Below, in pieces: positions 395 to 46,471 of a stretch of DNA of 64,000 nucleotides. A program made the translations under genes and the position numbers. The notes beneath the pieces are model-generated. The model worked only from the letters and a program-made list of their open reading frames with translations. It did no database searches and was not told the DNA's origin. Numbering within the stretch: position 1 is the first letter of the stretch; each line of letters starts with the position of its first letter. The DNA comes from Candidatus Heimdallarchaeota archaeon (GTDB lineage Archaea; Asgardarchaeota; Heimdallarchaeia; Heimdallarchaeales; Heimdallarchaeaceae), in the NCBI GenBank assembly GCA_019057375.1, contig DXJF01000053.1, forward strand, positions 13,268 to 77,267, read 5' to 3'.

Positions 395-2122
395 TTATTT
401 TTGAACTATGATTTTCTCATATATTTCCTGATACATAAAAACCAATGATTCAGTAGTTAGTTCTTTTTCAAACATTCTTCGCATCTTATTTTCAGGTTTT
501 CTTCTTTGGATTAGTTTAACGATTCTAACATAAAGAGATTTCCAGAATGGCCAAAGAGTAACAAGTTTAATCAAGAATAATAGGAATTTAAGGAAATATT
601 TACCAAATGATAGAAAGAATTTCTTGAAACTAAAATCCAAATCTTCTTTGAAACTAAATTCTTTACCCTTTTGTTTTACTGATTGATATGTTTCTATTAA
701 ATTCTCCTTAATTTCCGAGTACCTTTTACCAATGTATTTATGGATCTGAATAGTACCCTTAGAGAAAATAGTTTTTACTAAAGTAAAAAGCAAGTGTTTG
801 ATGTATAACAAAACAGCTAGAATAATCAGTAGAAATGGCATTAAGATTGCCAGTAAAGATACTCCAATAGACTTTAAAATAATAACAAATTTTGGTAGAG
901 GTCTGTAGATATCTTCAAGGTATTGTTCAGCTCCAAGAGCTAAGGAAATGGCAAGTTTATTGGATTCTATATCTGCCATAATTTGATTATATTTTTCTTC
1001 TTGTTGGTTAATTCCTTTTAATGCTCCTGTTATAAGAATTGATTTAATAGTTTCTTCTTTAAGTCCCTCTTTCTTTCTTTTTCTATTTAGCGTATAGAAT
1101 ACTTCTTCAGCTTCCTCAACAGTTAATCTGTTTCTTATTGCAAATCTTTCTAAAGCTTCATTTCTTCTCCATGGGACAATTGACTCTTCTTTAGCCCAAA
1201 TTAGTAAAGCGAAGGTTCTGGATGTAGAATCTTTTACTTTCGCTAAATCAAATTCTGATAGAGGGATATCGATTTTCTTGAGAAGTTTTTCAAGCTCTTT
1301 TTTCGATCTGTCAGGAACGTGTTTAGTATCTAGGGCTAACAGACCTTCGACTTTTTTCTTCACTTCATCTAGCTCTATTTTAATATCAAGCTTGAATTCA
1401 TCAAAGGTTTCACTAGAAATTGGTGGTGAAGAAAGAAAAGAAAAGGAGGATCTTGCAGCATAATAAGGAATAGCAAAAATATTTTCTAGATCTTGGTAGA
1501 TTGAAGCCCATCTGTAAGCTCCCATCTTCAATAGATATTTACTTGAGTTGTGAAAAACAACATAAATAGGTCCAAATAAGGTTACTACCCAGGAAATTAA
1601 GAGCATTAATGTACCTAATAACATAATACTTACTACGGGAGGTAAATAATTATTAAGATATCCTACAAGTCCTTTTCCCCAGATAATTGTAGGGATTAGA
1701 ACTAAAATAATAGGCGATATTCCCATGCTCATTGCTTGACCGATAGTTCTACGTAAAGGATAAGCTTTCATAACTTTCTGGCCTCTTAATTCAAGTTCAT
1801 CAAGCTCATTTGCAACTTCGGATATCTCTTTTGATTTCTTGCCTGCCATTATTTCAGATATTGGAAGGGTGATTTTTCTCATCATATTGAAGAATGGAAC
1901 ATATTCTCGTAAAGCTTTTGGTATAAAAATATCAAAAACTACTATCGCAAACTTTGCACCAATAGAAATCATAGAAATAAGGAAAGCAATAATTGAAAAT
2001 GAAATCTTTCTGTCTTTAGATTCTTCCTTCAAAGCTTCTTTATCTACTTCTTCTCCTTTGACATCTTCTTCTTGTTCTTCCAAAATTTCCTTTGATTCAC
2101 CCTTATTTTCTGAAGAAGCCAT
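395..2122 (-). CDS. Uncharacterised multi-pass membrane protein, paralog A (575 aa)
   Basis: Long ORF with several hydrophobic segments. Shares PxxLRExVP, KAYP, FGPIY..FH, GAY.W, LALGA and MY.EI..K motifs with 2181..4352 and 22966..24681. Confidence 0.85.
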   Translation of the reverse strand: MASSENKGESKEILEEQEEDVKGEEVDKEALKEESKDRKISFSIIAFLISMISIGAKFAIVVFDIFIPKALREYVPFFNMMRKITLPISEIMAGKKSKEISEVANELDELELRGQKVMKAYPLRRTIGQAMSMGISPIILVLIPTIIWGKGLVGYLNNYLPPVVSIMLLGTLMLLISWVVTLFGPIYVVFHNSSKYLLKMGAYRWASIYQDLENIFAIPYYAARSSFSFLSSPPISSETFDEFKLDIKIELDEVKKKVEGLLALDTKHVPDRSKKELEKLLKKIDIPLSEFDLAKVKDSTSRTFALLIWAKEESIVPWRRNEALERFAIRNRLTVEEAEEVFYTLNRKRKKEGLKEETIKSILITGALKGINQQEEKYNQIMADIESNKLAISLALGAEQYLEDIYRPLPKFVIILKSIGVSLLAILMPFLLIILAVLLYIKHLLFTLVKTIFSKGTIQIHKYIGKRYSEIKENLIETYQSVKQKGKEFSFKEDLDFSFKKFFLSFGKYFLKFLLFLIKLVTLWPFWKSLYVRIVKLIQRRKPENKMRRMFEKELTTESLVFMYQEIYEKIIVQK

Positions 2123-2180
2123 TATTATATAATCACTTATACAAATTTTAAAGTTGTGAAACTATCAATTGATGAAAGAA

Positions 2181-4352
2181 TTATTCTAATTTTGAAAGTA
2201 GTAAATCTGTTATTAGTAACTTATCATAAATTTCTTCATACATTGCTATCAAAGATTCTGTGGTTAACTCTCTTTCAAAATCTCTTTTCTGTATTTCTTC
2301 AATACTTCTTCTTGTCCATATTCGGCTGATAAAGCTATAAATTCCTTTCAAAAATAACCAGATAATCATTGGAATGAGCTTAATCAAAAATTTGAAACCT
2401 TTTTTAAAGATTTCAGCAAAATCAATATTCAAATCTCTTTTCCAACTGAATGTTTTTCCTCGTTTCTGAACGTTATCATAGGTTGTGGTTAATGTTTCAG
2501 ATATTTCCTTAAATCTTTGAGAGAAGAATTTGATTATTTTTCTTGTACCTATAGAAATTATTGCTCTAAATGAATAAATAATTACATGTCTAATATATTT
2601 ATAGAAAATGTATAACAGCATTCCAAAGGGCATAAAAGGCGCAATAAGAGAAATTCCCAATTTCTGTCCTAATTTTCTATACCAAGGTCTATAGGTAAAT
2701 TCATCCTTGATAAACTGTTGAGCACCAAGAGCTAATGCAATTGCTAATTTATTATATTCAACATCTGGCATTATTTGTTTGTATTTTACTTGCTGTTTTG
2801 CAACTCCCTTAAGGGCTCCTGTAATAAGAACAGATGAAAAAAGGTCGTAGCTTATATACCCTTCCTCTATTTTTGTAAGAATCACTTTGAATGCTTTTTC
2901 AACTTCTTTTCGACTCATATTATTCTTCTTTGCAAATCCTGCTTTAGCTTCTTGTCTCATCCATGGAAAAATAGAGGATTCTTTAGACCAGATAATTAAA
3001 GCAAAAGTCCTTCCAGTTTGCTTAGTTATTTTTGAAATATCTAACTCATTTAATGATAATTCAGCTTCAGTTAGTAGTTTTTCTAAGTTATTTTTCGACC
3101 TTTCCGGAACGTTTCTTGGATCAAGAGAAAGAAGCTGTTGAACTTTTTGTTTCATAGCATCTACTTCCTCCATAATTTCTAATCTAAAATCCACCAACGT
3201 TTCCGTAGATACTGGTGGAGCATCAAAGAAGCTGAAAGAGGATTTTGCAGCATGGTAGGGTAAAGAGAAGAAGTTTTCTAAAGTTCTGTAAATGTTTGCC
3301 CAGCGATATGCTCCCCATCTCATAAGATATAAGCTGCATTGATGGAATAAAGCGTAAATAGGACCAAAAATTGTAGCAATCCAGGAAACAACAAGTAATC
3401 CTGTTCCAAAGAGAGTAATTGTCCAGATAGGTTTAATATTAAACCAATATTCAAATACATATAGTAAATCAAGATATCTTAAATAGTTGGGAGAACCTAA
3501 AGGACCGAGAGTAGACAATTGCTCAAATGTAAAGAAAAAGATAGCATAGCCAATACGGAATATCCTGACAACAAGTGTAGGGATTGCAATTATAATAATC
3601 GGAGTTCCAATCGCTACATTGATTACTTCACCAAACGCTCTCCTAATAGGATAAGCTTTCATCATTCTTTGTTCTCTTAGAACTATTTCGTCCAATTCCT
3701 GCGAAACTTCTAGAATTTCTTTAGATTTTTTACCAGAAAGAAAATTAGCAACTGTTACAGCATATTTTCTGTACATCTGAAGCAAGGGGACTAATTCTCT
3801 TAAACCTCTGGGAACAATTATGTCAAATAATATTAGACTTAACTTTCCAAAAGCTGTAACAATAGTGAAAAGAACTGCTAGAATAATGAATGAAATTTTA
3901 ATCAATTCAGGGAATACCTTGACTTCTAAAGTTTGCCAAAAAGCTTTCAATTTCTTTATAGTATATTTTCTTAGTTTGGGAGGGTATATTATATAGAAGA
4001 AAATCTTCAGAAATTTTAAAATAGGCCAGATAAAAATGTAGTATTCAAGCAGGAGTAAGAATCCAATCGGAGTATAGTAGTGAAAAACATATTCATTCAG
4101 AAAAATCCATAATTCCTTACTTTTGATTTTGAACCAAATCCAAAATTTTCCAGCCCCCTTTTGTAGTTTTTCTTGAAATGAAATGGAAGTTTTTTTTATT
4201 TTTTCAATTTGTTTGAATCCAAATTCTTTGATCCGCGAAGAAAAACCTATCTTTTTTCGTTCATCAATTTCAATTGTTGGTTTTTCCTTGTTTGACATTT
4301 CAAAACCCTTTCTTACTAAATCAATGATTCTTCTGTTAGATTTTTTACTCAA
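2181..4352 (-). CDS. Uncharacterised multi-pass membrane protein, paralog B (723 aa; true start may be the internal ATG of MSNKEKP)
   Basis: Collinear similarity to 395..2122, with an extra hydrophobic N-terminal region. Confidence 0.85.
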   Translation of the reverse strand: MSKKSNRRIIDLVRKGFEMSNKEKPTIEIDERKKIGFSSRIKEFGFKQIEKIKKTSISFQEKLQKGAGKFWIWFKIKSKELWIFLNEYVFHYYTPIGFLLLLEYYIFIWPILKFLKIFFYIIYPPKLRKYTIKKLKAFWQTLEVKVFPELIKISFIILAVLFTIVTAFGKLSLILFDIIVPRGLRELVPLLQMYRKYAVTVANFLSGKKSKEILEVSQELDEIVLREQRMMKAYPIRRAFGEVINVAIGTPIIIIAIPTLVVRIFRIGYAIFFFTFEQLSTLGPLGSPNYLRYLDLLYVFEYWFNIKPIWTITLFGTGLLVVSWIATIFGPIYALFHQCSLYLMRWGAYRWANIYRTLENFFSLPYHAAKSSFSFFDAPPVSTETLVDFRLEIMEEVDAMKQKVQQLLSLDPRNVPERSKNNLEKLLTEAELSLNELDISKITKQTGRTFALIIWSKESSIFPWMRQEAKAGFAKKNNMSRKEVEKAFKVILTKIEEGYISYDLFSSVLITGALKGVAKQQVKYKQIMPDVEYNKLAIALALGAQQFIKDEFTYRPWYRKLGQKLGISLIAPFMPFGMLLYIFYKYIRHVIIYSFRAIISIGTRKIIKFFSQRFKEISETLTTTYDNVQKRGKTFSWKRDLNIDFAEIFKKGFKFLIKLIPMIIWLFLKGIYSFISRIWTRRSIEEIQKRDFERELTTESLIAMYEEIYDKLLITDLLLSKLE

Positions 4353-4353
4353 G

Positions 4354-6324
4354 TTATTTTACAAGATATTGACTTATATGTTTTTGTGCATCCCTTTTTT
4401 CGTCTTCATTTATTTTAAACAAACCATAAACTAAATCGTCTACTTCCTCATCTACTGAGGAAATCAATTCTTCATGCTTAAGCAAAATGTTCACTTTCAG
4501 AACAAGCAATTCATTTAGTTGATCGTTAGGTACTATAAAAGGTAAATCATGAAGATACATAGGAAGATAATGTAGATATTTTCCAGTTATCTCAGTACTT
4601 GAATACATTATAGAATACAAAAAGCTGAACAATTCGGAATTTAAAAGAGAAAGAATAAGTTCAAGACTAATGTTTAAGTCCTTAGCTTTTTGAGTCAAGT
4701 GTCCTAGTAAGAAAATATCTTTACAAACATAACCCTCAGTATCTAGTGTTGCTCTCATCCTTAGGGCATGTTGACATATAATTATCTTCTTTGATGTAAA
4801 TATATCAATTTCAGGAAAGTTATTCTTCATTCCTTTTGCTTTCTCATGATCATAGTCCAAATAGTAACCTTTCCAGTTAATACCATATCGTTCAACTTCT
4901 CTATTTCCACCAAATGGTTTACCACCTAGAAATTTCCTGGATTTAGTACTAATTGATTTTTCAAATACAAAATGTTCTCGTAATCCTCTCCGATGGAATG
5001 AAATTGACCATCTAAATCTAACTAAATCTCCTAACCTATATTCAGAGTCATTGTAAATCTTCTCTATTATTGAAAGGGAAGTTGAATCTGGAAGAAAAAT
5101 GGTTTTGTTTGTAGTTTTATGAAAAAAATCTGCAGAAACATATTTACACTTTGATTTGATGTTCATTGTTTGTAATTCTTCATAATCGACGTTTTTGGCG
5201 AGTTTGATAGTATCATCATTCAATCTATTCTTATCTAAAATAAGTATGATAGGATAAACAGCTGGACGAAAGACATTTTGATGAGTTATATCAACAATTT
5301 CTGAAATAAGATTATGTTCAAGGAAATATCTTCTCATTTCTTTTGAATATCTTGAACTAAGAAATTTACTGGGGATTATATATCCAAGTTTTCCATTAGC
5401 TTTTAGCAGATCTGTACCAAGTTCTAAAAAGCAAGAATAAACATCAAAATGCCCTCTAGCAGCTTTAGGGAAATTAAGTAAGCAAATCTTCTTAATCAGT
5501 TTATCCATCCGTTTTGCTTCAATATAAGGTGGGTTACCAACTACAAAATCATACCTCTGATTCTTTGCTTTCCTAACTTCAAAAATATCTTTCTCTCCTT
5601 GTTTGTCCACAGAGTTTGTTAGATAAATGTTAGGAGTGAAGGATATTTCTAAATTATATCTCTCTTTAAATCGTTCAATTAGTATTAGTGATATATTAAA
5701 TTTAGAGATATAGACTGCTAGCGGGTCAATATCAAATCCAAAAACATACTTTTGAATATAATTTGATATTTCATTTACAGTGAATTTTTCTTTATTTTGC
5801 TCAATCAGTAAGTCTATTGCTTGCGCTAGAAATAATCCTGAACCTGATGATAAGTCAATAATATTTTGTGTATCAATTATAGAATATCTGTTAGGAAATC
5901 CTACTTGATGAAGAATGTAATTTATTACGGAAATTGGAGTAAAAACTATTCCTTTTCCTTGCTTAGCTGTTTTTGTTAAAATCTTCTGATATAGATTCCC
6001 TAAAGGGTCCAAACCAATTTTATTGCCGAACTTATTTCTTATTTCAATTATTTTAGGGTAGATCTGAGAAAATTGGTCATATTTTTCAATATCATATAAA
6101 GAAGGGAAAGCTCTCGAAATCTTTGAGATTTTCTTCTTAAAAGATAGAGTAGGTTCAATCAGGTTGTATTTTTCAGCACAGGATGTCAGATATAAACCCC
6201 CAAGAACCTTGAAGCTTCTTAACAGCTCATCTTCATCAAAGAGCTTGTTCTTTAGAATCAAGTTATTAATTTGAAAAAGAATTTCTTCAAGATGATTAAG
6301 AGAACCCAATAGATTATCAGACAT
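4354..6324 (-). CDS. N6-adenine DNA methyltransferase (Eco57I/TaqI-like gamma class, C-terminal target recognition domain)
   Basis: Motif I IIDLSSGSGLFL, GFDIDP, motif IV FVVGNPPY, DVYSCFLE..LLK.NGKLGYIIP. Confidence 0.9.
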   Translation of the reverse strand: MSDNLLGSLNHLEEILFQINNLILKNKLFDEDELLRSFKVLGGLYLTSCAEKYNLIEPTLSFKKKISKISRAFPSLYDIEKYDQFSQIYPKIIEIRNKFGNKIGLDPLGNLYQKILTKTAKQGKGIVFTPISVINYILHQVGFPNRYSIIDTQNIIDLSSGSGLFLAQAIDLLIEQNKEKFTVNEISNYIQKYVFGFDIDPLAVYISKFNISLILIERFKERYNLEISFTPNIYLTNSVDKQGEKDIFEVRKAKNQRYDFVVGNPPYIEAKRMDKLIKKICLLNFPKAARGHFDVYSCFLELGTDLLKANGKLGYIIPSKFLSSRYSKEMRRYFLEHNLISEIVDITHQNVFRPAVYPIILILDKNRLNDDTIKLAKNVDYEELQTMNIKSKCKYVSADFFHKTTNKTIFLPDSTSLSIIEKIYNDSEYRLGDLVRFRWSISFHRRGLREHFVFEKSISTKSRKFLGGKPFGGNREVERYGINWKGYYLDYDHEKAKGMKNNFPEIDIFTSKKIIICQHALRMRATLDTEGYVCKDIFLLGHLTQKAKDLNISLELILSLLNSELFSFLYSIMYSSTEITGKYLHYLPMYLHDLPFIVPNDQLNELLVLKVNILLKHEELISSVDEEVDDLVYGLFKINEDEKRDAQKHISQYLVK

Positions 6325-6388: not shown

Positions 6389-6880
6389 TTAAATGTATCG
6401 CATTTTAAGTCTTTGAAACTTTGATGCACATATGTTACATAAAGTAGAGGGTTTTTGTATAAGAACTTCAAAACTATCAGTTCTTTTCATTAAACATTCC
6501 TCAACGCATGGTTTCAAACCTAAAACTATCCCAACGTGAAAAGCTACTTCTTTGGCTATAAGTGTTCTAGTTGCCATTCTAGCCGTAGATACAATTGTTC
6601 CTTTGATAGTCTCACCATATCCGAAAACATACTCAGTATTAACAATTAGTGATTGTTCGATTAACCAAAGAAAAAAGGATAATCCTTCTGATTGAGCATT
6701 ATTTAGAAGTAATTGCGCATCAAAAGCGTTTCTTTCAGTATTCCAGGCTACTTGTCGAGGGATTCTAACACCTACAGATCTGAACTGCATTTGATAGATA
6801 TCACTAAGGAACCTCTCAACATGTTCTGAGACTTCATCAGCGATTTTTTCACAATAATAAATTTTGAAATCCCTAGGCAA
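6389..6880 (-). CDS. Archaemetzincin-like protein with degenerate active site
   Basis: R..FDAQ.LL, G..VST.R, and KEVAFHVGIVLGLKPC..CLM....LCNIC align to the archaemetzincin pattern KEAVHELGH.FGL.HC..C.M..FC..C, but the HExxH residues are lost. Confidence 0.7.
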   Translation of the reverse strand: MPRDFKIYYCEKIADEVSEHVERFLSDIYQMQFRSVGVRIPRQVAWNTERNAFDAQLLLNNAQSEGLSFFLWLIEQSLIVNTEYVFGYGETIKGTIVSTARMATRTLIAKEVAFHVGIVLGLKPCVEECLMKRTDSFEVLIQKPSTLCNICASKFQRLKMRYI

Positions 6881-7475: not shown

Positions 7476-8201
7476 ATGAATAAAGCTAAGAAAATAGATT
7501 TAGAGAAATGCAAAGTTCTAGATTGGGAATTGGATGAATCTTTGTTGATTGAAGCACTCACTCATCCAAATTATCACCCACCAAACCAAATTATTTTAAA
7601 TTTCGAAAGATTGGAGTTTCTAGGAGATTCGATATTAGATACTCTAACAGCTGAATGGCTCTATAAAGAAACCAAAGAAGATGTTGGTATTTTGTCTCAA
7701 CTAAGATCTCTCTTAGTTAGAACCAATACATTAGCAGAAGTAGGAAAGGAATTAGGAATTGAAAAGAAATTAAGAACTGGTTCTAATTACAAAATAGTTG
7801 AAACTGATCTAGAAGATAGTTTAGAAGCTATTTTTGGAGCTTTTTATCTCTCTAAAGGCGTAGATGTAACAAGAGAATTTTTTAACAAACTATTTCTCAA
7901 ACGACTTCAGCATTTTAAAAATGAGATAAATGATGAAATAGGGAGAGAAAAAATACTTAAACTAACAGTTTGTGAGCATAATCCCATCAATCAACTTCAG
8001 GAATTTTTCCAAAAAGAGGGATTAGAACTTCCTGAATATTCTCTTTTAAAGAAAAAAGGGGATGATCACGAACCCATTTTCTTTATGCAATGCAGAGCAA
8101 AAATAGGCGAAAAGGAATATTTAAGCTCTGGAAAAGGATCAAACAGAAAGTCAGCTAAACGTGATGCTGCTGAGAAAATGAGTAAGAAACTGAAAATTTG
8201 A
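7476..8201 (+). CDS. rnc: Ribonuclease III (catalytic domain plus dsRBD)
   Basis: Signature ERLEFLGDSILD, second acidic cluster EDSLEAIFGA, and dsRBD NPINQLQE...GKGSNRKSAKRDAAEK. Confidence 0.95.
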   Translation: MNKAKKIDLEKCKVLDWELDESLLIEALTHPNYHPPNQIILNFERLEFLGDSILDTLTAEWLYKETKEDVGILSQLRSLLVRTNTLAEVGKELGIEKKLRTGSNYKIVETDLEDSLEAIFGAFYLSKGVDVTREFFNKLFLKRLQHFKNEINDEIGREKILKLTVCEHNPINQLQEFFQKEGLELPEYSLLKKKGDDHEPIFFMQCRAKIGEKEYLSSGKGSNRKSAKRDAAEKMSKKLKI

Positions 8202-18146: not shown

Positions 18147-18977
18147 TTAAAGCAGAAGTTTTAACCACTCAACTAGATCAGAAAAAGCTTTATCTCTTTT
18201 TTCTTTAGTTTCTGTATACATTTCATGTTTGGAATCTTTATACATTTTTACTGTAACATCTGAATTTTCCAAATCATCAATTAACTCATCCAGATCTACT
18301 ATCATTGTGTCAAGTTCTCCTTTTTGGATTAGTACTGGAATTTTTATTGAACTGATTTTATCTTTTACATCTTTGTAGTGATCAATCAAATTCAAACCAT
18401 AGGACGCTGAAGCTTGTTTGTAATTAATTAAAGGATCAGTAACATAATCCTGAACAGATTCTGGATCCGAGGATATTTCTTCAGGTATAATCCCAGCAGG
18501 ACCTTTAAAAGTTGGAAGAATTTTATTCATAAGCCTTGCAAGAATATTAAGAGCTGGAGGTAGAGGTGGAATTCTAGCACCAGATCCTGATAAAACCAAT
18601 CCAGTTATCTCCTCTTGATGTTTGATTGCATAACGTTGTGCAACTAATGATCCCATTGAATGACCTATAACAACAATTGGTACATCTTTATGATTATTTT
18701 GTATAATTTTTGTCAAACTAAAACAATCGACAACATAATCATCAAGGCTTCTAATATGATTTCTTCTTCCTTCACTCTTTCCATGACCTCTATGATCATT
18801 CCCATAAACTGCAAATCCGTTGTCTGTAAGGTATTTTACAAGGTGCTTATACCTTCCTGTGTGTTCAACTCCCCCATGGATTATCTGAATAATTGCATTA
18901 GGTTCCTTATGAATCCAAGCTTGATAGAAAATCCTGTGGTTTTTTCCACCTACAAAATAATCTAGTTTATGCTCCAT
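18147..18977 (-). CDS. Alpha/beta hydrolase (lysophospholipase/monoacylglycerol lipase family)
   Basis: HGGVEHTGRY, DHRGHGKSEG, nucleophile GHSMG, and C-terminal HE. Confidence 0.92.
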   Translation of the reverse strand: MEHKLDYFVGGKNHRIFYQAWIHKEPNAIIQIIHGGVEHTGRYKHLVKYLTDNGFAVYGNDHRGHGKSEGRRNHIRSLDDYVVDCFSLTKIIQNNHKDVPIVVIGHSMGSLVAQRYAIKHQEEITGLVLSGSGARIPPLPPALNILARLMNKILPTFKGPAGIIPEEISSDPESVQDYVTDPLINYKQASASYGLNLIDHYKDVKDKISSIKIPVLIQKGELDTMIVDLDELIDDLENSDVTVKMYKDSKHEMYTETKEKRDKAFSDLVEWLKLLL

Positions 18978-19008
18978 AAAAAAAGTAAGAAGAAAGTACT
19001 CTTTAAAT

Positions 19009-19908
19009 CTAATTGTCCAATTCAGTTTTTTCTAAAACAAAATTGCTAAGTTCGATTAACATATTCTGAATTTTTTGAACTTCTTTATCTTCTGAATCAA
19101 TTTCGAGTACTGATTTCTTTTCAATCATAGCTTTAACAAAAACGGGATTATAAGGTATCTTCTCTATTATCGGAAATGTTTCTTGAAATTCTTTTTCTAT
19201 TTTCTGTGAAATATCCTCATTAATGTCAGATTGGTTAATAATAATGTATCCTGGAATTTTAAATATTTTTAACAGCTGTAGAATCCTATCTAAATCATGA
19301 TAACCTGATAGTGTAGGCTCTGTAACAACTAGTGCTAGATCAGCTCCAACTAATGAACTGACTACTGGACAACCTATTCCTGGAGAACCATCAATTAAGA
19401 CTAGTTTTCGCCCTTGTTCCTCAGCTGTTTGTTTTGCAACTTTTCTTACTTCAGCAACTAACAAACCGGAGCTTTCCTCTCCAGGATAGAGTCTAGCATG
19501 AATCATCTTTCCAATTCGAGTGTCAGAAATATAGTATTGACCAGATATGTTGTCTAGCATTTCTATTGCTGAAATTGGACACATATGATAGCAAGCTGCA
19601 CATCCTTCACATTTAGTTGGATTTACTATAAAATCATCAGAAATTGAATCAAATCTACAAGTTTCTAAACAAATCCCACATTCTGTACATAAGTCTAAAT
19701 CAATTTTAGCTTTCTTTAATCCTTCAAAATCGAAAGAAACAGTTTTTACTGGCTCAAATATTAGATATAGGTCTGCTGCGTCTACATCAGCATCTGCAAG
19801 AATAATCTTATCTTGAAGATTGCTTGCTAAAGCAGCTATAATTGAACTTTTCCCTGTTCCTCCCTTTCCAGAAATAACTGTTAATTGTTTGATTTTCTCT
19901 TCTTTCAT
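19009..19908 (-). CDS. MinD-superfamily P-loop ATPase with inserted 4Fe-4S ferredoxin domain
   Basis: SGKGGTGKS, DADVDAAD, CTECGIC..C, CEGCAAC..CP, DGSPGIGCPV. Confidence 0.93.
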   Translation of the reverse strand: MKEEKIKQLTVISGKGGTGKSSIIAALASNLQDKIILADADVDAADLYLIFEPVKTVSFDFEGLKKAKIDLDLCTECGICLETCRFDSISDDFIVNPTKCEGCAACYHMCPISAIEMLDNISGQYYISDTRIGKMIHARLYPGEESSGLLVAEVRKVAKQTAEEQGRKLVLIDGSPGIGCPVVSSLVGADLALVVTEPTLSGYHDLDRILQLLKIFKIPGYIIINQSDINEDISQKIEKEFQETFPIIEKIPYNPVFVKAMIEKKSVLEIDSEDKEVQKIQNMLIELSNFVLEKTELDN

Positions 19909-20741
19909 TCTAAAGCCTCCCCTATATCAACAATCATTTTTTTAAGTTTTGAATCCATTTCAGGAAGAACATTTAAGAAAGGAACTCCTTTAGAATAGTT
20001 CTTGGCTATTTCTAGATCGAAAGGAATTTTGAGAAGAACAGGTATTTCTTCCTTTTGACAGAACAATTCTAATTCCTCATTTCCTACCCCATCTTTGTTT
20101 ATAACTACTCCAAACTTCTTTTCCAGAATCCTTAATGTTTTTACAACCATTTTCATATCAGAAAGTCCAAATGGTGTTGGTTCGCTGACTAAAATGACGT
20201 AATCTGAATCAATAACCGTTTCAACCATTGGACATGAGGATCCAGGGGGTGAATCAATCACGATAATGGGTTTATCTTTAGAAATTAATTGTTTTAACTG
20301 AGAAATTACAGGAGTTGATAGTTCTTCACCTACTATCAATGATCCGAAATTAAAGAGAAATTCTTTATTTTCACCTTCGTAGAGATAACCAATGGTTCTA
20401 GGTACTTCAGTGATAGCATTTTCAGGACATATTTTGCTACATAATCCGCAACCATGGCACATTTTTTCAAAAACAAGAATCTGATCTGGAACTTTCATAA
20501 GTGCATTATATTCACAATTTGAACTACAAGCACCGCATAAAGTGCACAAATCATAATTAATCTCAGGAATAGGAATCTTTGCTTCTGCTACTAGTTTAGT
20601 ATCTAAGTCCAGAAATAAAGAACAATTAGGCTCATCAACATCTGCATCAAGAAGCTGAACGTTCTCTAATGTCATCGCTAAACTAACAGCAAGAGAGGTT
20701 TTTCCAGTTCCTCCTTTGCCGGAAACTATTGTTATTTGCAT
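19905..20741 (-). CDS. MinD-superfamily P-loop ATPase with inserted 4Fe-4S ferredoxin domain (paralog)
   Basis: SGKGGTGKT, DADVDEPN, CTLCGAC, CHGCGLC..CP, DSPPGSSCP. Confidence 0.93.
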   Translation of the reverse strand: MQITIVSGKGGTGKTSLAVSLAMTLENVQLLDADVDEPNCSLFLDLDTKLVAEAKIPIPEINYDLCTLCGACSSNCEYNALMKVPDQILVFEKMCHGCGLCSKICPENAITEVPRTIGYLYEGENKEFLFNFGSLIVGEELSTPVISQLKQLISKDKPIIVIDSPPGSSCPMVETVIDSDYVILVSEPTPFGLSDMKMVVKTLRILEKKFGVVINKDGVGNEELELFCQKEEIPVLLKIPFDLEIAKNYSKGVPFLNVLPEMDSKLKKMIVDIGEALE

Positions 20742-20758
20742 TGGTTGTTTCCTTCAGT

Positions 20759-21115
20759 TTAGTGTTTACATCCGTCGTCGTGTGTAGCTTTGTGCAATTT
20801 GCCTTCCTTAAAGAAATCAATAGTTTCTTTGAGTGTCCCCACTGCACCCATATATACGTGTAATCCAAGCTGTGCTCCTAAAGCAACTGCTCTAGCACCA
20901 GCTCCTTTACAAAATACTCCATTACATTTGTCAGCTAAAAACTCCATTGGAAGCCCAACACCACCTTTGTGATCGCTTCTGTTTTCAATCATATTTATTG
21001 TGTCTGTTTCTTCATCCCATATAGCAAAATAGGGCACATGTCCAAAGTGTTGTCCTACAATAGAATTCCAATCATCATTATTATCTAAAGGTACTGCATA
21101 TTTCATTTTTTTCAC
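20759..21115 (-). CDS. NifB/NifX-family (FeMo-cofactor-binding-like) protein
   Basis: YAVP...VGQHFGHVPYFAIWD; GAGARA. Confidence 0.9.
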   Translation of the reverse strand: MKKMKYAVPLDNNDDWNSIVGQHFGHVPYFAIWDEETDTINMIENRSDHKGGVGLPMEFLADKCNGVFCKGAGARAVALGAQLGLHVYMGAVGTLKETIDFFKEGKLHKATHDDGCKH

Positions 21116-21454
21116 CTATAATTTTCTTAATTCATCTTTTTTCCATTTATCTATTAAATTTTTGACAGGAATTGGTTCTCCCTGAAAAATTGTTATTTGC
21201 GCTGCTCGAAGTGCACCGTCTGCATTGGGTCCCAATTGAGGGACTATCACAGATTGAATTTGCTTACTACTTAGAAACTCAACAGCTCTCGGACCTGCTC
21301 CACCTCGTGCTCCAACTGCTGGGTTAGCAACCACAACAGATGAATCATCTTCTGTATCAAAAATGCAGAAGTAGCTAGCTCGTCCAAATCTTTCAAACAT
21401 TATCGGATTGTCATCTTTTGATGATACTGGTATAGCAACTTTCAAATTATTCAT
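21116..21454 (-). CDS. NifB/NifX-family protein (start reassigned to ATG 21454, MNNLKVAIP)
   Basis: KVAIP...FERFGRASYFCIFD...GAGPRAVEFL...GPNA. The ATGAATAA overlap couples it to the DUF134 stop codon. Confidence 0.9.
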   Translation of the reverse strand: MNNLKVAIPVSSKDDNPIMFERFGRASYFCIFDTEDDSSVVVANPAVGARGGAGPRAVEFLSSKQIQSVIVPQLGPNADGALRAAQITIFQGEPIPVKNLIDKWKKDELRKL

Positions 21455-21743
21455 CTTCCTTTTCTTCAGGCTCTTCAAACAAAATAGCTTTTGTACTGAA
21501 AAATGCCTCAGCAATTTTAGAATGAGCAGTAGCCAAATCTCGGCTGAAAGAAGCTTGGGATATACCCATCTTTTCAGCAGCAGAATTCTGTTTAATCGAT
21601 AGAAAATCAGAGTAATAAAGAGCAGTGATTTCCTCTTTGGTTAAAGTAATCTGTTCTAAATCTTTCATGGGTACGGCTAAGGGCTTAAAGACGTGTCCTT
21701 CGTAAGAAATGCAACGTCGCTCTATTTTGCGATTCTGAACCAT
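21447..21743 (-). CDS. DUF134 family predicted DNA-binding protein
   Basis: R.I......FKP...P...LEQITLTKEE..AL..SD..Q..AAEKMGISQASFSR. Confidence 0.9.
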   Translation of the reverse strand: MVQNRKIERRCISYEGHVFKPLAVPMKDLEQITLTKEEITALYYSDFLSIKQNSAAEKMGISQASFSRDLATAHSKIAEAFFSTKAILFEEPEEKEDE

Positions 21744-21897: not shown

Positions 21898-22905
21898 TTG
21901 TCATTAAAGGGATTCATAATTAGAAGAGTGTTATATATTGTTCCAGTTATGCTTGGAATTACTTTGATGAATTTCACTCTAATCAATGTCAGCCCAGGAG
22001 ATCCAGTTATAGTTAGACTTGGATTGATTCACTGTGATAATCCAGAGTGTTATAATAATGCATACAATCGAGAAGCAATAGAAATGGGATTGATGGACAG
22101 AGATTTATACACAATTCCGTGGTTCACAAGATATGTGGATTATGTTAGTGATTTACTGCGTTTTGACTTTGGAAACTCTTGGTACAACACACAAGCAGGG
22201 ATAGGGATACCTATATCGAAAATAATTGCGGATCATGCATCGTATACAGTGATACTAAACGTTATTTCGTTTGTACTATCATTAGTATTATCTACAGCAA
22301 TAGGTGTGGTTTCAGCAACAAGAAGAAACAGTTTCTGGGATAGATCACTAACTATAGCGATGTTATTGGGATACTCGATGCCTCTGTTTTGGATAGCTAA
22401 GCTGTTTATGTTCTTATCTTTCAAATTATTTAATTTTACTGGAGTAACAAATAAGGATGCGTTTGTGAAGCCACTATTACTTAATCCAAGCTTCTACAAA
22501 TATCTGATATTACCAACACTAGCATTGACTTTGGGGCATCTGGTTTTTATGGCAAGATTGATTAGATCACAATTGCTGGAAATATTAAGGCAAGATTATA
22601 TAACAACAGCAAGAGCGAAAGGAGTTAAAAGCAGAGGAGTAATTTACAAACACGCATTCAGAAATGGATTGCTTCCAATAGTAACAATAGTAGGAAATTC
22701 TTTACCAGGTTTACTAGCAGGGTCTGTGATGATTGAAACTGTGTTTGGGTGGCCTGGGTTAGGCACTTACTTTCTGGAAGGAGCGCTCTTCAGGGACTAC
22801 CCCATGATGATGGCAACAAATACGATCTTTCCGTTTCTTTTCCTTGTAGCACGTTTACTTACGGATATCACGTATGTCTTTATTGACCCAAGGGTTAAAT
22901 ACTAA
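21898..22905 (+). CDS. dppB: Oligopeptide/dipeptide ABC permease (DppB/OppB type), orphan
   Basis: FIIRR.L..P...GIT...F.L...PGDP, FDFGNS, QDYITTARAKG EAA loop, HAFRN.LLP, IETVFGWPGLG, RDYP. Confidence 0.9.
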   Translation: MSLKGFIIRRVLYIVPVMLGITLMNFTLINVSPGDPVIVRLGLIHCDNPECYNNAYNREAIEMGLMDRDLYTIPWFTRYVDYVSDLLRFDFGNSWYNTQAGIGIPISKIIADHASYTVILNVISFVLSLVLSTAIGVVSATRRNSFWDRSLTIAMLLGYSMPLFWIAKLFMFLSFKLFNFTGVTNKDAFVKPLLLNPSFYKYLILPTLALTLGHLVFMARLIRSQLLEILRQDYITTARAKGVKSRGVIYKHAFRNGLLPIVTIVGNSLPGLLAGSVMIETVFGWPGLGTYFLEGALFRDYPMMMATNTIFPFLFLVARLLTDITYVFIDPRVKY

Positions 22906-22965
22906 TCCTCTTTTCTTTAATTTTTAGTATCACAAAATTAAAAATATAGTTCATGCTACGCTTTA

Positions 22966-24681
22966 TTGTACATGAAAAAATTCTTTAGCAATATCCTCAC
23001 AGCTGTACTTACTCCCTTCCTTTGGGTACTTGGTGTTCTTCTCTATTTTATTGTAGTTCTTGCTAAGGTTTTCTTTTTTATTTACGAACTTCTCATTCCT
23101 CGAGGTCTTCGTGAGTTAGTTCCTATACTCAACCTCTGGAGGAAGTACTTAATTTATATTTCTAACCTCTTCTCTAATCCTGAAAAAATGGAATTAGTTA
23201 AATTTGAGGAAGAGATTGAAGAAGTTGTTATGAAAGAAGATAGGATTAACAAAGCTTACCCTATTCAAAGAGGTGTTGGAGAAACTTATGACCATCTCCT
23301 AATTATTGTTTTAATTGTTGCAGCTTCCATTGTTTTGATTGGTAGCCAAACCATCAGTTTTGATGCCCTTATTGATGGGATTATCAGTAGAAGTGATTGG
23401 TTGAGCTCACTTGGTGATAAAGCTCTTTGGGTAGTTATAACTCTTATTGGTGTAGTCTGTTCAACCGTTATGGGTATGCTTTCTTTTGTAGCAACAATCT
23501 TTGGACCTATCTATGCTATTTTTCATCGTTCCAGTTTAAGACTAGTTCAAATGGGAGCTTACAGCTGGGGTTCTTTCTATCAACGACTTGAAAATCTATT
23601 TTCCCTTCCATATCTTGCTTCTAAAGCTAGTTTTTCCTTTTTTGAAGCCCCTCCTGTTGATGCTTCTACTTATGAGGAATTCAAACTTGATCTTGTAAGT
23701 GATCTAACAACTTTACGAGAGAGATTTACAAACATTGTTAGTGTTTCTTCTTTTTCTTTACATGAAAAAACTAAGAATCTCTATGAGGAATTTCTTTCAT
23801 CAGAGACTGAAGATAGACTAGATATGAATAATATTGAGGATTCCATCTCTCGAATCTTCTCACTACTTCTTTGGCAGAAAGAAACCAATGTGCTTCCTTG
23901 GACAAAAGAACCTGGTTTAGCTAGTTTTGCTGAGAAAAATTCCATGAAATACCGAGAAGCTAAGCAAACTTTCAGTTTCGTGAGAAAAAAAATAGATGAG
24001 CAATTTGTATCAAAAGAGTTTTTCAGTTCTATTCTTCTTAATGGTTCGTTGAAAGGAATAATGAAAGTTGAAGAAAAATACAATCTCCCCTTTAGTGATT
24101 TAGAATATAACCAATTAGCATTTTCTATAGCTTTAGGCGGACAAAGGTATTTTCTAGACCATCTTTCTAAAGAGAAATTTTTCAAACGAGCTTTAAAGAA
24201 GCCCAGAAATATGGTGGTTGGTTTCTTCATGCCATTTGTTGAATTCTTCCTGATTTTCTACCATTATGGAAAACACATTGGAAATCAATTCAAGATGATG
24301 TTTTCTAAAAACTGGACAAAGAGATCTGCTGTCTATCTTGGATCTAAATTTATTGAAATCCAAAAAGGATTAAACTCATTACTACTTGCTGATGAACCTC
24401 ATGAGGAATTAGACGAAGCAACAAAAGCTGAAGCTAAAGAATCCCTTGGTATGCTTTGGAAGGTCTTATTATTCATCTTCAAAGTTATATTAGCCCTCCC
24501 CCTAAGTCTTTACTATTTTGCTAAACTGTTCTATCAGCTCGTTTCCAATATCTGGAGAAAGAGAAAACCTGAGGAGAGAATAAAACGTAAATTCGCTAAA
24601 GAGATAGCTAAAGAAACAATTGTTGCAATGTATGAAGAAATTCATGAAAAGTTGGTAATGGAGACCTTTCTCTATTCATAG
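22966..24681 (+). CDS. Uncharacterised multi-pass membrane protein, paralog C (571 aa)
   Basis: Same conserved motif series as 395..2122 and 2181..4352. Confidence 0.85.
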   Translation: MYMKKFFSNILTAVLTPFLWVLGVLLYFIVVLAKVFFFIYELLIPRGLRELVPILNLWRKYLIYISNLFSNPEKMELVKFEEEIEEVVMKEDRINKAYPIQRGVGETYDHLLIIVLIVAASIVLIGSQTISFDALIDGIISRSDWLSSLGDKALWVVITLIGVVCSTVMGMLSFVATIFGPIYAIFHRSSLRLVQMGAYSWGSFYQRLENLFSLPYLASKASFSFFEAPPVDASTYEEFKLDLVSDLTTLRERFTNIVSVSSFSLHEKTKNLYEEFLSSETEDRLDMNNIEDSISRIFSLLLWQKETNVLPWTKEPGLASFAEKNSMKYREAKQTFSFVRKKIDEQFVSKEFFSSILLNGSLKGIMKVEEKYNLPFSDLEYNQLAFSIALGGQRYFLDHLSKEKFFKRALKKPRNMVVGFFMPFVEFFLIFYHYGKHIGNQFKMMFSKNWTKRSAVYLGSKFIEIQKGLNSLLLADEPHEELDEATKAEAKESLGMLWKVLLFIFKVILALPLSLYYFAKLFYQLVSNIWRKRKPEERIKRKFAKEIAKETIVAMYEEIHEKLVMETFLYS

Positions 24682-24733: not shown

Positions 24734-25831
24734 ATGGACAACAAAAGGTCTAAACTTCATGAATTGGGATTCCAAGTAGGAATTTTAGAGAGAGGGGAGA
24801 GAAATTCTATAGCAGATGTACCTGATGTTACAGTTGGACATAGTACAATAATTGCTGGAGAAGGTGAATTAAAACCAGGTTTTGGACCCATTAGAACAGG
24901 TGTAACAGTAGTAAAACCTCACTCAGGAAATATCTATCGCGATAAAGTTAGAGCAAGTTCATATGTCTTTAATGGGTATGGAAAAACAACTGGTTTAATT
25001 CAAGTTGAGGAGCTGGGAAATATTGAATCCTATATTGGATTGACTAATACACTGAATATTTCCAAAGTTACTGATGCTTTATTAGATTATCATCTTGAGG
25101 AGAACCCTGATATCGGAATAAAAACTTCTACAATAAATATTGTAGTGGGAGAATGTCATGATGGATATCTAAATGATATTCAGGGAAGACATGTTCAAAA
25201 GATTCATGTTCTTAATGCGATAGAAAGTACTTCTTCAGATTTTGAAGAAGGATCTGTGGGCGCAGGGACAGGTATGACAGCTCTTGGATTTAAGGGAGGA
25301 ATTGGGAGTTCATCTAGAATTATTAAAGATGAAGAAATAGAATATGTTGTAGGAACTCTTGTATTATCTAATTTTGGTAGAAAAAATGATTTGACTATTT
25401 TAGGTCATAATTTTGCTAAGTTCATTGAGGAAAGTGAGAAAGAAGAAGCATCAAAAGAAGACGATGGTTCAGTAATAATTGTAATTGCTACTAATGCCCC
25501 ATTAAATGCTAGACAACTAAATAGATTAGCTAAGAGAGCTCCTTTAGGACTTGCTAATACAGGCAGTTACGGTTCTCATGGTTCCGGGGATATTGTAATC
25601 GTGTTCTCAACTGAAAACAAAATTAACCATGATAATAAAGAAAAGACTTCGACCATGAAATTAGTAAATGAAGAAACAAAGGCTTTCCGAGATTTACAAA
25701 GAGCTGTTGTTGAAACAACTGAAGAAGCTATACTCAACTCCCTATTAAAAGCAACAACTATAATTGGTAGAGATAATCACAAGAAAGAAGCTATTTCGAT
25801 TAAAAAAGTCAAAGAAATTCTGTCAAAGTGA
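24734..25831 (+). CDS. dmpA: DmpA-like L-aminopeptidase/D-esterase (peptidase S58, Ntn-type autoprocessing)
   Basis: NSIADVPDV.VGH, RTGVT, NGYGK.TG, EGSVGAGTGM..GFKGGIGSSSR, cleavage site DG/SVI, GSGD. Confidence 0.93.
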   Translation: MDNKRSKLHELGFQVGILERGERNSIADVPDVTVGHSTIIAGEGELKPGFGPIRTGVTVVKPHSGNIYRDKVRASSYVFNGYGKTTGLIQVEELGNIESYIGLTNTLNISKVTDALLDYHLEENPDIGIKTSTINIVVGECHDGYLNDIQGRHVQKIHVLNAIESTSSDFEEGSVGAGTGMTALGFKGGIGSSSRIIKDEEIEYVVGTLVLSNFGRKNDLTILGHNFAKFIEESEKEEASKEDDGSVIIVIATNAPLNARQLNRLAKRAPLGLANTGSYGSHGSGDIVIVFSTENKINHDNKEKTSTMKLVNEETKAFRDLQRAVVETTEEAILNSLLKATTIIGRDNHKKEAISIKKVKEILSK

Positions 25832-27063: not shown

Positions 27064-28563
27064 ATGAATGAAACCATAGCTTTTGTTCAAACACCTAAGG
27101 ATATAGCAAAATTGATGATTTCACTTATTTCGGAAAACAAAAAAATTCAGAAAAACATATCTATTCTAGATTCAGGCTGCGGTAAGGGTATCTTCCTTAA
27201 AGGTCTTCAAGAAGCAGGATTTACAAATATTGAGGGAATTGAACTAAGTAAAGATTTGTATGAATTCTGTCTGAAGAAGTTCCCGAATATCCAACTTTAC
27301 AATGATGATTATTTAGATTGGTTAAGTCTAAAGGAATACGACCTCATAATAGGTAATCCTCCTTATACTCACTATAATTCTCTTCCCAGATCTAGTAGAT
27401 CAAAAGTTGTAAGAATTGTAGGAAACAAAGAGTCAGATATTTACTATGCATTCATTTTGAAATCTATTGAATTGTTGAAAGAAGGAGGAGAATTAATTTT
27501 CATTGTTCCATATGGTTTTTTCTTTAATACTTATGCCAAGGTGATTAGAGAGAGAATAATCGATAATGGTTATCTGGAAACAATTATAGATTTGGATGAA
27601 ACCAGATTATTTGAAGATGAAAATCCTGAAACGCTTATTTTTAAATTTGTTAAGAAATCTTTGGAATCTAAGCAGAATATTAGAATACTTAGGATAAAAG
27701 AAAGAAATTTCAAACCAAATACCATCAATAATAAAGCAGTTGAATCGTTATCAAATAGTAAAGAAAATGAGGTTTTTACATACTACGAAAGACAGATGTT
27801 TACTCATGAGAATGAAGTATGGACAACTTATCCTGAAAAAATCTTTTCTGATTTTTATCTTTTGAAAGAAGTATGTTGGATTGGAGTTGGTTTGGTTTCA
27901 GGATTTGAACAAGCTTTCCTTCTTGATGAGGAAGAAAAATCTCTATTAAATGATGAAGAAAAGGAATTTTTAGTAAGGTCAATCAAATCAAAACATTGTC
28001 AAGGATATTGGACAGATGGTTTTGAATATTATTTATTGATTGATAAAAGGATTAAATCTGAAGAAGAACTGAAGAGATATCCTACCATTCATAGGAAACT
28101 TATCTCACATAAGGATAGTATGACAGTTAGATATTTTCCTGCCAGTAACAAATGGTTTCATTGGCAAGCTTTAAGGAATTATGAGAAGCTGAGATCCTTT
28201 ATTGCTCAACCCAAAATTTTTGTACCAAGTTTAGATAGAAGCACAGAGAACAGATTCAGTCTAACTGAAGAACCGTATCTACCATCTGGAGATGTACTTA
28301 CACTGGTTCCACAGCAAAAGGATCCTTTCTTTTTATTAGGCTATCTTAACAGTAAATTCTTTAGGGAATATTATCTCTCTGCTGGTGCAAGGAGAGGGCA
28401 TAGAATCTCATTCACTCAGCGAATTATGAGTAATGTAAGAATTCCCGTTTTTGATCAAGAGACAGAAAATGGAATAGCTAAAATAGCAAAGAATATTTTT
28501 GACGGAAAGAATACTGCAAAAAGAAAGGAAATAGACGAAATTATTTCAATCAATCTCAAATAG
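27064..28563 (+). CDS. N6-adenine DNA methyltransferase (Eco57I/TaqI-like), solitary
   Basis: ILDSGCGKGIF, GIELS, IIGNPPY, DIYYAFI.KS..LLKEGGELIFIVP; C-terminal TRD ending YLLGYLNS. Confidence 0.93.
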   Translation: MNETIAFVQTPKDIAKLMISLISENKKIQKNISILDSGCGKGIFLKGLQEAGFTNIEGIELSKDLYEFCLKKFPNIQLYNDDYLDWLSLKEYDLIIGNPPYTHYNSLPRSSRSKVVRIVGNKESDIYYAFILKSIELLKEGGELIFIVPYGFFFNTYAKVIRERIIDNGYLETIIDLDETRLFEDENPETLIFKFVKKSLESKQNIRILRIKERNFKPNTINNKAVESLSNSKENEVFTYYERQMFTHENEVWTTYPEKIFSDFYLLKEVCWIGVGLVSGFEQAFLLDEEEKSLLNDEEKEFLVRSIKSKHCQGYWTDGFEYYLLIDKRIKSEEELKRYPTIHRKLISHKDSMTVRYFPASNKWFHWQALRNYEKLRSFIAQPKIFVPSLDRSTENRFSLTEEPYLPSGDVLTLVPQQKDPFFLLGYLNSKFFREYYLSAGARRGHRISFTQRIMSNVRIPVFDQETENGIAKIAKNIFDGKNTAKRKEIDEIISINLK

Positions 28564-35133: not shown

Positions 35134-36501
35134 TTAGCTACTTACAGTGTGACCATCTATTGTCAAAGTAGAACTTTCTAATGGAAAGGGTAAATCAACA
35201 GGATCTGATCCGATATGCTGAATTTTCATCAATGATTCAAAGAAATTTCCTGCGATACTTACTGGTTTAAGAGGATGAACAATCTCTCCTTTCTCAACCA
35301 AATATGCATTAGTTGCAGTTATAGAGAAATCTCCAGTAATCATATTTGAATGTCCCATACCCATTGGAAAACCTTCAATGAAAATAGCTTTATCATATGC
35401 TGCAATTTGCTCGTCTTTGTTTTTAGTGCCAGGTTGTAGAACAAGTTTGTTAGGTGATATGGCAGGCATATTTTCATAACGTGTTGGTTCATTTCTTTGA
35501 GCATTTCCAGTACTTTTAGTTCCGAAAATTGGTCCATAGAAATTGTCAAACAGAAAGCTCTTTAGAACACCATCTTTTACTATTTCAGTTTTACCTATAG
35601 TTGTTCCTTCAGCATCAATAGCTTCTGAAGAAATCTTTGTTGGAATAGTACCATCATCATTCAATTGGAAATCTTTGGTTGCAATTTGTTCATTCAATTT
35701 ATGCATCAAAGGATTTTGTTTTTCGACTACAGTTCCACCATTAAGTCCTACTTGAAAAGTTGTGCTCAATAACATTGAAGCTGTTAAGGGTTCCCAGATT
35801 GTAGGGAGTTTAAGAGATTTTCCGAGAGGTTTTGAACCTAAGTGTTTGAATGCTTTATTGATCGCATTCGAACCTAATCCACTTAAATCTTGTATAGTTC
35901 TGCCAACTTTGAAGTCAAAAGCTGTTGAACGTTCTCCTTGACCCATAGCAACAGAGTACACTGTTCCATAATGAGCAGTATTAAGAGAGGAGACAAGACA
36001 GCCTTCAGTTGTTGCTACAGCAAAACCACCCCATTGAGTGCCCACTTCGATATCTGCGCCAACTAATCTTTGATCATCAATATCTGCTTCTTTAACTAAA
36101 CTAGCTAAATGTCCAACAAGAGTTTCAGTGTCAAGTTCAGTAATATTTGTATCTAGAATTCCTTCTTTTCCAGGTTTACTATCAGAAATAAAACCAGAAA
36201 ATCGTGGATCTTCAGGACGGTTTTTTGCAATCTTATGTGCATTAGCCAAAGTCGATTTAATGGAATCATGTGCAAACCCTGCACAAGTAGCAAAGCCAAC
36301 TTTTTTACCTTCGGCAACACGGATGCCAATTCCTTGAAGCATACCATCTCGGCATTCAGTTTTTCCTTTAGAATACTTCACTTCAGTTAGAGAATTCTTG
36401 ATGATGTAAGCTTCAGCAGTTTGAATACTCATATCTTTTGCATACTTTAGAGCTAAATCAGCTACTTCCAGTATTTCAGAACGTAATTTTTCTAGTACCA
36501 T
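35134..36501 (-). CDS. pmbA: PmbA/TldE metalloprotease non-catalytic subunit, copy 1
   Basis: GIGIRV..GKKVGFA, DAEG....T..VKDGVL..FLFD, STGNA.R, TGDFS..A..AY.VE.GEI; no HExxH. Confidence 0.9.
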   Translation of the reverse strand: MVLEKLRSEILEVADLALKYAKDMSIQTAEAYIIKNSLTEVKYSKGKTECRDGMLQGIGIRVAEGKKVGFATCAGFAHDSIKSTLANAHKIAKNRPEDPRFSGFISDSKPGKEGILDTNITELDTETLVGHLASLVKEADIDDQRLVGADIEVGTQWGGFAVATTEGCLVSSLNTAHYGTVYSVAMGQGERSTAFDFKVGRTIQDLSGLGSNAINKAFKHLGSKPLGKSLKLPTIWEPLTASMLLSTTFQVGLNGGTVVEKQNPLMHKLNEQIATKDFQLNDDGTIPTKISSEAIDAEGTTIGKTEIVKDGVLKSFLFDNFYGPIFGTKSTGNAQRNEPTRYENMPAISPNKLVLQPGTKNKDEQIAAYDKAIFIEGFPMGMGHSNMITGDFSITATNAYLVEKGEIVHPLKPVSIAGNFFESLMKIQHIGSDPVDLPFPLESSTLTIDGHTVSS

Positions 36502-36502
36502 T

Positions 36503-37918: not shown

Positions 37919-38063
37919 TTTTATTCACCTTTTTGGTTTAAATATTTTTTGAATTGTTGAAAAATTACTAGAGGAATTTATAAAAGTATGCAAAACCAGT
38001 TGGTTTCAAACTTAAACCAATAATAGTTAAAATAATTTAAAAAAAAGAAAAGAAATTTTTTTT

Positions 38064-46309: not shown

Positions 46310-46351
46310 ACTACCACAGTCAGTTATGTTTATTTATACACTTATAAAAAT

Positions 46352-46410: not shown

Positions 46411-46471
46411 TACTTATACAAATTCACTAACAAGTGCTTTGGCTAAAGGTCAAAGATACGAAAAAAAAGGA

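Follow-up and report, generated by a model that had tools for sequence, protein, structure and literature searches.

What do three large, related membrane proteins do in a heimdallarchaeal cell, and are they a pore, a carrier or something else? The question is raised by a stretch of 64,000 nucleotides on contig DXJF01000053.1 (positions 13,268 to 77,267 of the forward strand) of the Candidatus Heimdallarchaeota archaeon assembly GCA_019057375.1. This whole stretch is called the window here, and positions are those of the window unless another contig is named. Eukaryotes are thought to have branched off from the archaeal class Heimdallarchaeia, whose lineage-specific membrane biology is almost unexplored. 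A preliminary description, made from the letters of the window, had reported three large paralogous membrane proteins, two of them in tandem, of a family that it did not recognise. The three open reading frames (ORFs) lie where it placed them and align collinearly. They belong to an orphan, vertically inherited, all-α polytopic membrane family confined to the order Heimdallarchaeales. As to function, we tentatively prefer a platform anchored in the membrane to a pore or carrier. The three genes are as follows.

395 to 2122, minus strand: paralog A, 575 amino acids (aa), with an acidic N-terminal tail of 40 aa, five hydrophobic segments, a large helical loop 3 and a conserved C-terminal helix.

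2181 to 4352, minus strand: paralog B, 723 aa if read from a TTG at 4352, more likely 705 aa from an ATG at 4298; its core is built as in A and is preceded by a basic N-terminal extension with one extra hydrophobic segment, an addition common to B-type orthologs.

22966 to 24681, plus strand: paralog C, 571 aa from a TTG or 569 aa from an ATG at 22972; it belongs to the older C clade.

In the public database both B and C are read from the internal ATGs, giving B as 2181 to 4298 (705 aa) and C as 22972 to 24681 (569 aa). In a three-way alignment the proteins are collinear from end to end, with 126 invariant columns; A shares 45% identity with B and 34% with C. All three carry, in order, the motifs IP(K/R)xLRExVP, KAYPxxR, FGPIYxxFHxxS, GAYxWxxxYxxLENxFxxPY, SFSFxxxPP, N(K/Q)LAxxxALG, MPF and MYxEIxxK. 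Every motif listed in the preliminary description is thus present and in its place, except that MYxEIxxK, which had been put at the extreme C-terminus, sits 5–12 residues before the end. The genome contains exactly three copies of the family. Measured against two congeneric genomes, the ratio of nonsynonymous to synonymous substitution rates is 0.18–0.21 for A, 0.15 for B and 0.07–0.10 for C. Therefore, A, B and C are all functional genes under purifying selection.

Known relatives were sought at the levels of sequence, profile and fold. Scans of A, B and C against Pfam, NCBIfam and PADLOC gave nothing meaningful; the only PADLOC match was a weak one of C to CARF_TM over the hydrophobic part (E 9e-5, 21 bits), with none for A or B. 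A Pfam scan of 66 family members found no recurring family, the best being a short Spo0E-like stretch in 8 of the 66 at E ~0.01. The PDB sequence profile search returned only the Habc domain of syntaxin-1A, at E 0.63. With Foldseek, two AlphaFold2 (AF2) models compared with the PDB gave E values of 0.6 or above and TM-scores near 0.1, and in the PDB, two wider structure libraries and a viral library no match rose above the noise of helical hairpins, the models themselves being only moderately confident. The helical hairpin of ESCRT-III, PspA and Vipp1 is one of the nearer known structures; the ESCRT-III rows in these fold searches are generic hairpin matches. The best score in the ESM Atlas was 0.77, with no usable match, and a literature search found nothing on the family. 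The nearest entries are "hypothetical protein" records from Ca. Heimdallarchaeaceae, Ca. Heimdallarchaeum aukensis (K9W45_01195) and Ca. Kariarchaeaceae. With E values from 1e-93 to 0 and the same architecture and motifs, they are genuine homologs, and they come without a name, a Pfam domain or experimental data. Library scans, PDB profiles, the 66-member scan and the fold searches thus agree with the preliminary description in finding an unrecognised, lineage-specific family that bears no enzyme, channel or NTPase signature. The profile search and the comparison of AlphaFold monomers by Foldseek that it had proposed gave no confident match to a characterised family or a known transporter fold.

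The range of the family is narrow. A word-indexed database search returned 61 clusters, and those with a named source are Heimdallarchaeota, Heimdallarchaeaceae or "Asgard group", except one labelled Thorarchaeota; a second such search with a broad alignment found no relative beyond the known set. An exhaustive search of 1.84e9 representatives with a profile hidden Markov model found only 29 clusters at E <= 1e-3, of which ~16 were nearly full-length, with Heimdallarchaeaceae, Ca. Heimdallarchaeum aukensis and Kariarchaeaceae as the named members and no eukaryotic protein. No relatives were found on viral contigs. A census of 301 Asgard genomes covered the four families of the window's own order and 258 genomes of 26 other families. 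Members were present in 41 of the 43 genomes of the order (27/28, 10/11, 1/1 and 3/3 by family). The 258 other genomes yielded one marginal match (E 7e-4), interrupted by two in-frame stops and treated as noise; the 21 genomes of a sister family had no member, and among the genomes sampled none was found in other orders of the same class. Within Heimdallarchaeales the range takes in Heimdallarchaeaceae and probably Kariarchaeaceae. The remote eukaryotic membrane relative that the preliminary description had entertained did not appear in the exhaustive profile search, the PDB profile search or the four fold searches, nor was the family found in the other orders of its class that were sampled.

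The maximum-likelihood tree tracks taxonomy, and its duplication nodes are well supported. One clade holds the forms of the order's other families, which are mostly single-copy, with one recent tandem duplicate. The opposite clade holds those of Heimdallarchaeaceae and is split into a C clade and an A/B clade, A and B parting within or near the genus of this genome. That is, the family was ancestrally single-copy; a first duplication, at the base of Heimdallarchaeaceae, separated C from A/B, and a later one gave rise to the tandem pair A and B in or near this genus. It follows that an oligomer, if there is one, would have begun as a homomer.

The proteins share a core of five hydrophobic segments, placed in A by the hydropathy of the three proteins and a family alignment of 66 sequences at residues ~44–62, 130–148, 163–181, 421–439 and 503–527 (transmembrane segments TM1 to TM5). 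The four loops between them measure 67, 14, 239 and 63 aa, and a tail of 48 aa follows. Hydropathy and the AF2 models bear out the layout first described, namely membrane helices, a soluble helical domain of ~200 aa and further hydrophobic helices. The AF2 fold is all-helical. Its mean confidence (predicted local distance difference test, pLDDT) rose from 60 with 26 sequences to 69.7 with 66, the latter with a predicted TM-score (pTM) of 0.64. TM3 with its return helix, the bundle at residues 290–420 and the C-terminal helix are best defined, and TM2 falls below a pLDDT of 50. No internal duplication or inverted repeat was found in the family protein. A Lys stripe in TM5, considered as a pore lining, was dropped, as it is conserved only in the A and B types. 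The conserved parts of A are these.

1421 to 1576, minus strand: the most conserved block, aa 183–234 (FGPIY...GAYRW...LENxFxxPY...SFSFxxxPP), directly after the third membrane helix; in the AF2 model it is a helix running back alongside the extension of TM3.

893 to 1255, minus strand: a conserved soluble helical bundle, aa 290–410, the best-predicted part of the model (pLDDT ~76–92).

404 to 496, minus strand: the conserved C-terminal helix, aa 543–573 (FEKELxxESLxxMYxEIYxK), packed on the soluble bundle in the model.

We infer that the core crosses the membrane with five helices, its N-terminus lying outside the cell and its C-terminus in the cytoplasm. The cytoplasmic side would then hold loop 1, which is a basic helical hairpin, as well as the helical loop 3 of 239 aa and the C-terminal helix. 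This orientation is favoured because three independent hints point to it. The B-type orthologs and some long forms of the order's second family (Kariarchaeaceae-type) have a basic N-terminal extension of 64–161 aa, and such long basic extensions are always accompanied by exactly one added membrane helix. Sequons for N-glycosylation (N-X-S/T) reach a density of 0.6 per 100 aa in loops 2 and 4, against 0.23 in loop 1 and 0.35 in loop 3, and the C-terminal tail is depleted of them, with 1 observed versus 7 expected. Finally, the C-terminal helix packs against the helices of loop 3 in the AF2 model. Taken by itself, the positive-inside rule gives an ambiguous answer, since loop 4 is strongly basic.

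Two known layouts invite comparison. The plan of the Oxa1 superfamily (YidC, Get1, EMC3, TMCO1 and archaeal DUF106/Ylp1), which we take to be TM1, a basic cytosolic helical hairpin, TM2, a short outer loop and TM3, recurs in equal order in the N-terminal third of the family; the likeness is one of layout. The A/B/C proteins differ in being three times larger, with the 239-aa helical domain, two more membrane helices and the conserved C-terminal helix. Homology to Oxa1/DUF106 was rejected at the profile level, as an hhalign comparison of family residues 36–200 with 26 Asgard DUF106 proteins gave a probability of 0.4% (E 0.087). None of the 66 members matched PF01956 (EMC3_TMCO1), PF02096 (60KD_IMP) or PF04420 (Get1) at E <= 1. 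The order of elements fits a three-helix core of Oxa1 type with a basic cytosolic coiled coil between TM1 and TM2; TM2 is the poorly modelled helix, and the fold searches contained no Oxa1-type chain. A canonical DUF106 gene is present separately in this genome. As a separate observation, in two genomes of the order's second family (G015, L031:1474–2937; G036, L042:1474–2934) two matches to EMC3_TMCO1 (DUF106) occur, one of which falls within an ORF of ~487 aa, against the usual 170–210 aa, and may be a fused or extended insertase. The second comparison is with the eukaryotic pentaspan proteins prominin and Tweety (TTYH), which also have five membrane helices and large all-helical loops, homology not being implied. 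Prominin has two large loops outside the cell, one following TM2 and the other TM4. The A/B/C family has instead one large loop, after TM3, and two medium ones, and its large domain is probably cytoplasmic. No prominin-type sequence or fold match was found, a poxvirus prominin at a Foldseek E of 0.63 being noise.

Where, then, does selection act? In the 66-sequence alignment, mean column conservation is 0.39–0.46 in the membrane helices, and TM2 and loop 2 contain indels. It is 0.60–0.74 over residues 176–235, 296–315, 356–395 and 556–575, that is, in the segment after TM3 (FGPIY...GAYRW...LENxF..PY...SFSFFDAPP), in parts of the soluble bundle and in the C-terminal helix. Most of the family-wide invariant positions are Gly, Pro, aromatic or charged residues at the predicted membrane–cytoplasm interface and within the bundle. 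The family has no conserved His, Cys or Ser and no Asp-rich motif.

Because conservation is concentrated in the cytoplasmic and juxtamembrane parts, and the membrane helices are the least conserved, we favour a membrane-anchored cytoplasmic platform, an adaptor or scaffold, over a channel. We rank this reading above each of the alternatives weighed below, and think it the likeliest of them while giving it somewhat less than an even chance. The cytoplasmic assembly of juxtamembrane segments, helical domain and C-terminal helix would carry the function, and the membrane helices would serve mainly as an anchor. Such a platform, probably oligomeric, might hold or organise its partners on the inner side of the membrane.

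Several points weigh against the platform. Loop 4, which our topology places outside, is strongly basic (net +7) and has a conserved RYxEI motif, and so breaks the positive-inside rule. TM1 keeps a polar or basic residue in mid-helix, and its end bears a near-invariant Asp; these might form the lining of a pore or groove. Some real channels also have poorly conserved membrane helices. The AF2 model is only moderately confident (pLDDT 70, pTM 0.64, TM2 below 50), so that the lack of fold matches carries little weight.

The neighbouring genes offer a possible clue to partners, and the features that matter are listed here.

4354 to 6324, minus strand: an N6-adenine DNA methyltransferase of Eco57I/TaqI_C type with intact NPPY and S-adenosylmethionine motifs, directly upstream of B; given as gene context and not as a demonstrated part of the system.

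21898 to 22905, plus strand: an orphan ABC permease of DppB/OppB type beside C, sharing 84% identity with the permease of a full dpp-like operon on contig C10; gene context only.

2145 to 2152, minus strand: a TATA-like TTTAAAAT, 23–30 nucleotides upstream of the ATG of A.

22934 to 22948, plus strand: an A/T-rich, TATA-like stretch, 24–38 nucleotides upstream of the ATG of C.

Orthologs of the methyltransferase occur only in Heimdallarchaeaceae, in 26 of 30 genomes versus 0 of 16 in the order's other families. The ortholog lies <=2 kb upstream of an A/B-type gene and on the same strand in 22 genomes, which belong to three genera, as well as on many metagenomic contigs. The orphan DppB permease stands beside a C-type gene in 22 genomes of four genera, the orientation being divergent in two of the genera. 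In the order's second family, the recurring neighbour is a CcdA/DsbD_TM-like protein, and from family to family the neighbours vary (methyltransferase, DppB permease, CcdA-like protein, epimerase). The TATA-like box suggests that A may have its own promoter and a leaderless transcript. C may likewise have its own promoter, as suggested by its TATA-like stretch, ahead of which a T-rich tract (22910–22926) follows the stop of the permease. Background synteny is high: 8 of 20 neighbouring pairs (~40%) in loci of genera g3 and g4 are also adjacent in this genome, the methyltransferase–A and DppB–C pairs among them. Because of this background, the separate TATA-like boxes and the T-tract, we read the methyltransferase–A/B and permease–C pairs as conserved gene order and, at most, a weak functional hint.

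Two further observations concern these neighbours. The dpp-like operon (C10:12639–18290) comprises DppB, DppC and two ATPases, and there is no second DppC in the genome; both DppB copies are 74–94% identical across genera and far more conserved than C. A second type II-like N6-adenine methyltransferase of 499 aa (27064–28563; PADLOC MTase_II, E 1e-118) lies 2.4 kb downstream of C, in the same layout as in the congeneric locus L025, and no nuclease gene is evident nearby.

What else might the family be? The preliminary description had proposed, besides a membrane-shaping scaffold, an oligomeric channel, possibly a hetero-oligomer of the paralogs; the corresponding reading here is a homo- or hetero-oligomeric ion channel or transporter with a cytoplasmic regulatory domain. 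The multi-pass architecture suits it, as do the TM1 residues noted above, an amphipathic TM5 that is Lys-bearing in the A and B types, and the frequency of transport proteins among the neighbours (DppB permease, EamA transporter, CcdA/DsbD_TM-like protein). But a channel or transporter fits poorly with membrane helices that are the least conserved part and tolerate indels in TM2 and loop 2, with a Lys stripe lost in the order's other families, with the absence of an internal repeat, and, with little weight given the moderate confidence of the models, with fold searches that showed no similarity above noise to a solved channel or transporter, such as the MFS, TRP, ABC, bestrophin and ALMT/FUSC folds of the PDB. 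We consider it unlikely. Of the earlier alternatives of channel or scaffold, conservation leans to the scaffold side, in the form of an anchored platform, and away from the channel. An integral-membrane enzyme at the cytoplasmic interface, acting for instance on a lipid or lipid-linked intermediate particular to the order, would make use of the invariant or near-invariant residues predicted to lie there (D64, E73, R82, Y121, R124/125, Y187, Y203, R204, E213 and D231), and presence across the order under purifying selection fits a housekeeping role. Yet the want of a conserved His, Cys, Ser, Asp-rich or nucleotide-binding motif, of any enzyme family or fold match, and of biosynthetic neighbours kept across the families of the order makes this a little less probable than a channel. 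Much more doubtful is a highly diverged insertase of the Oxa1/YidC–Get1–EMC3–DUF106 kind with additional domains fused to it. In its favour are the layout and the basic hairpin, which agree with the Oxa1 plan in general, and the polar or basic residue in mid-TM1, but the hhalign result, the empty PF01956 and PF02096 scans and the genome's own DUF106 gene leave it little room.

Other explanations start from the gene pairs. The proteins might be accessory subunits, each with its own partner, A and B tethering the adjacent DNA adenine methyltransferase to the membrane and C serving the adjacent orphan permease. The methyltransferase has stayed beside the A/B-type gene across the three genera, and on shared metagenomic contigs, while diverging to 41% identity; the permease has kept its place by the C type in four genera and lacks DppC or ATPase genes of its own. 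Against this stand the level of background synteny, which embraces both pairs, the putative promoters of A and C with the T-tract between permease and C, the divergent orientation in two genera, and the fact that neither partner lies beside members in the order's three other families. We regard such a role as improbable. A bolder version combines it with the platform, so that a new fold, evolved in Heimdallarchaeales and facing the cytoplasm, would act as a docking device by which, in Heimdallarchaeaceae, A and B hold the co-inherited methyltransferase at the membrane, as a means of DNA methylation or chromosome tethering, and C serves an ABC-type permease; this is slightly more improbable again. 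The same methyltransferase, type II-like, lacking an adjacent nuclease gene and closely followed by B, could suggest a methylation-linked defence in which A and B replace the restriction enzyme as membrane effectors. However, the family is near-universal in its order and vertically inherited, unlike patchy defence genes. It predates the link to the methyltransferase, three families of the order having the protein without it, and it shows no convincing PADLOC match and no relatives on viral contigs. A defence effector is accordingly the least probable of the explanations considered. The membrane-anchored platform thus keeps its place as our working preference.

The rest of the window holds several features of separate interest. 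It is rich in peptidase and peptide-uptake genes (24734–25831, 35134–40858 and 44879–48226), including a DmpA/S58 aminopeptidase right after C, four tandem metallopeptidase genes of TldD/PmbA type, a Pab87-like peptidase of β-lactamase fold with an octamerisation domain, and a family-5 solute-binding protein. Upstream of the methyltransferase lie genes for a short Peptidase_M54 (archaemetzincin)-like protein (6389–6880) and a bacterial-type RNase III with a dsRBD (7476–8201), in an order kept in genus g2 (L023). A block at 18147–21514, also kept in the congeneric L025, encodes two ATPases of MinD/ParA type that carry 4Fe-4S ferredoxin inserts, along with an α/β hydrolase and two small ORFs, of 118 and 132 aa, that are paralogs. 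An NAD-dependent DNA ligase of the bacterial LigA type, with adenylation, OB and HhH domains, is encoded at 29344–31251, an unusual find in an archaeon. Two further ORFs (41184–42590, 468 aa; 43445–44854, 469 aa) have no Pfam match at E <= 1e-5 and may be paralogs of each other, and a 723-aa protein (52772–54943) joins TPR repeats to a helix-turn-helix of ArsR type.

The family is no eukaryotic signature protein. Neither eukaryotes nor the other orders sampled yielded a member, so that it bears on eukaryogenesis only indirectly. What makes it valuable is the structural novelty of a membrane protein and the cell biology of Heimdallarchaeales. A strongly constrained protein of ~570 aa, of which almost all genomes of one order have one to three copies, is a well-defined target, and it probably represents a new fold and a core function of Heimdallarchaeales cells.

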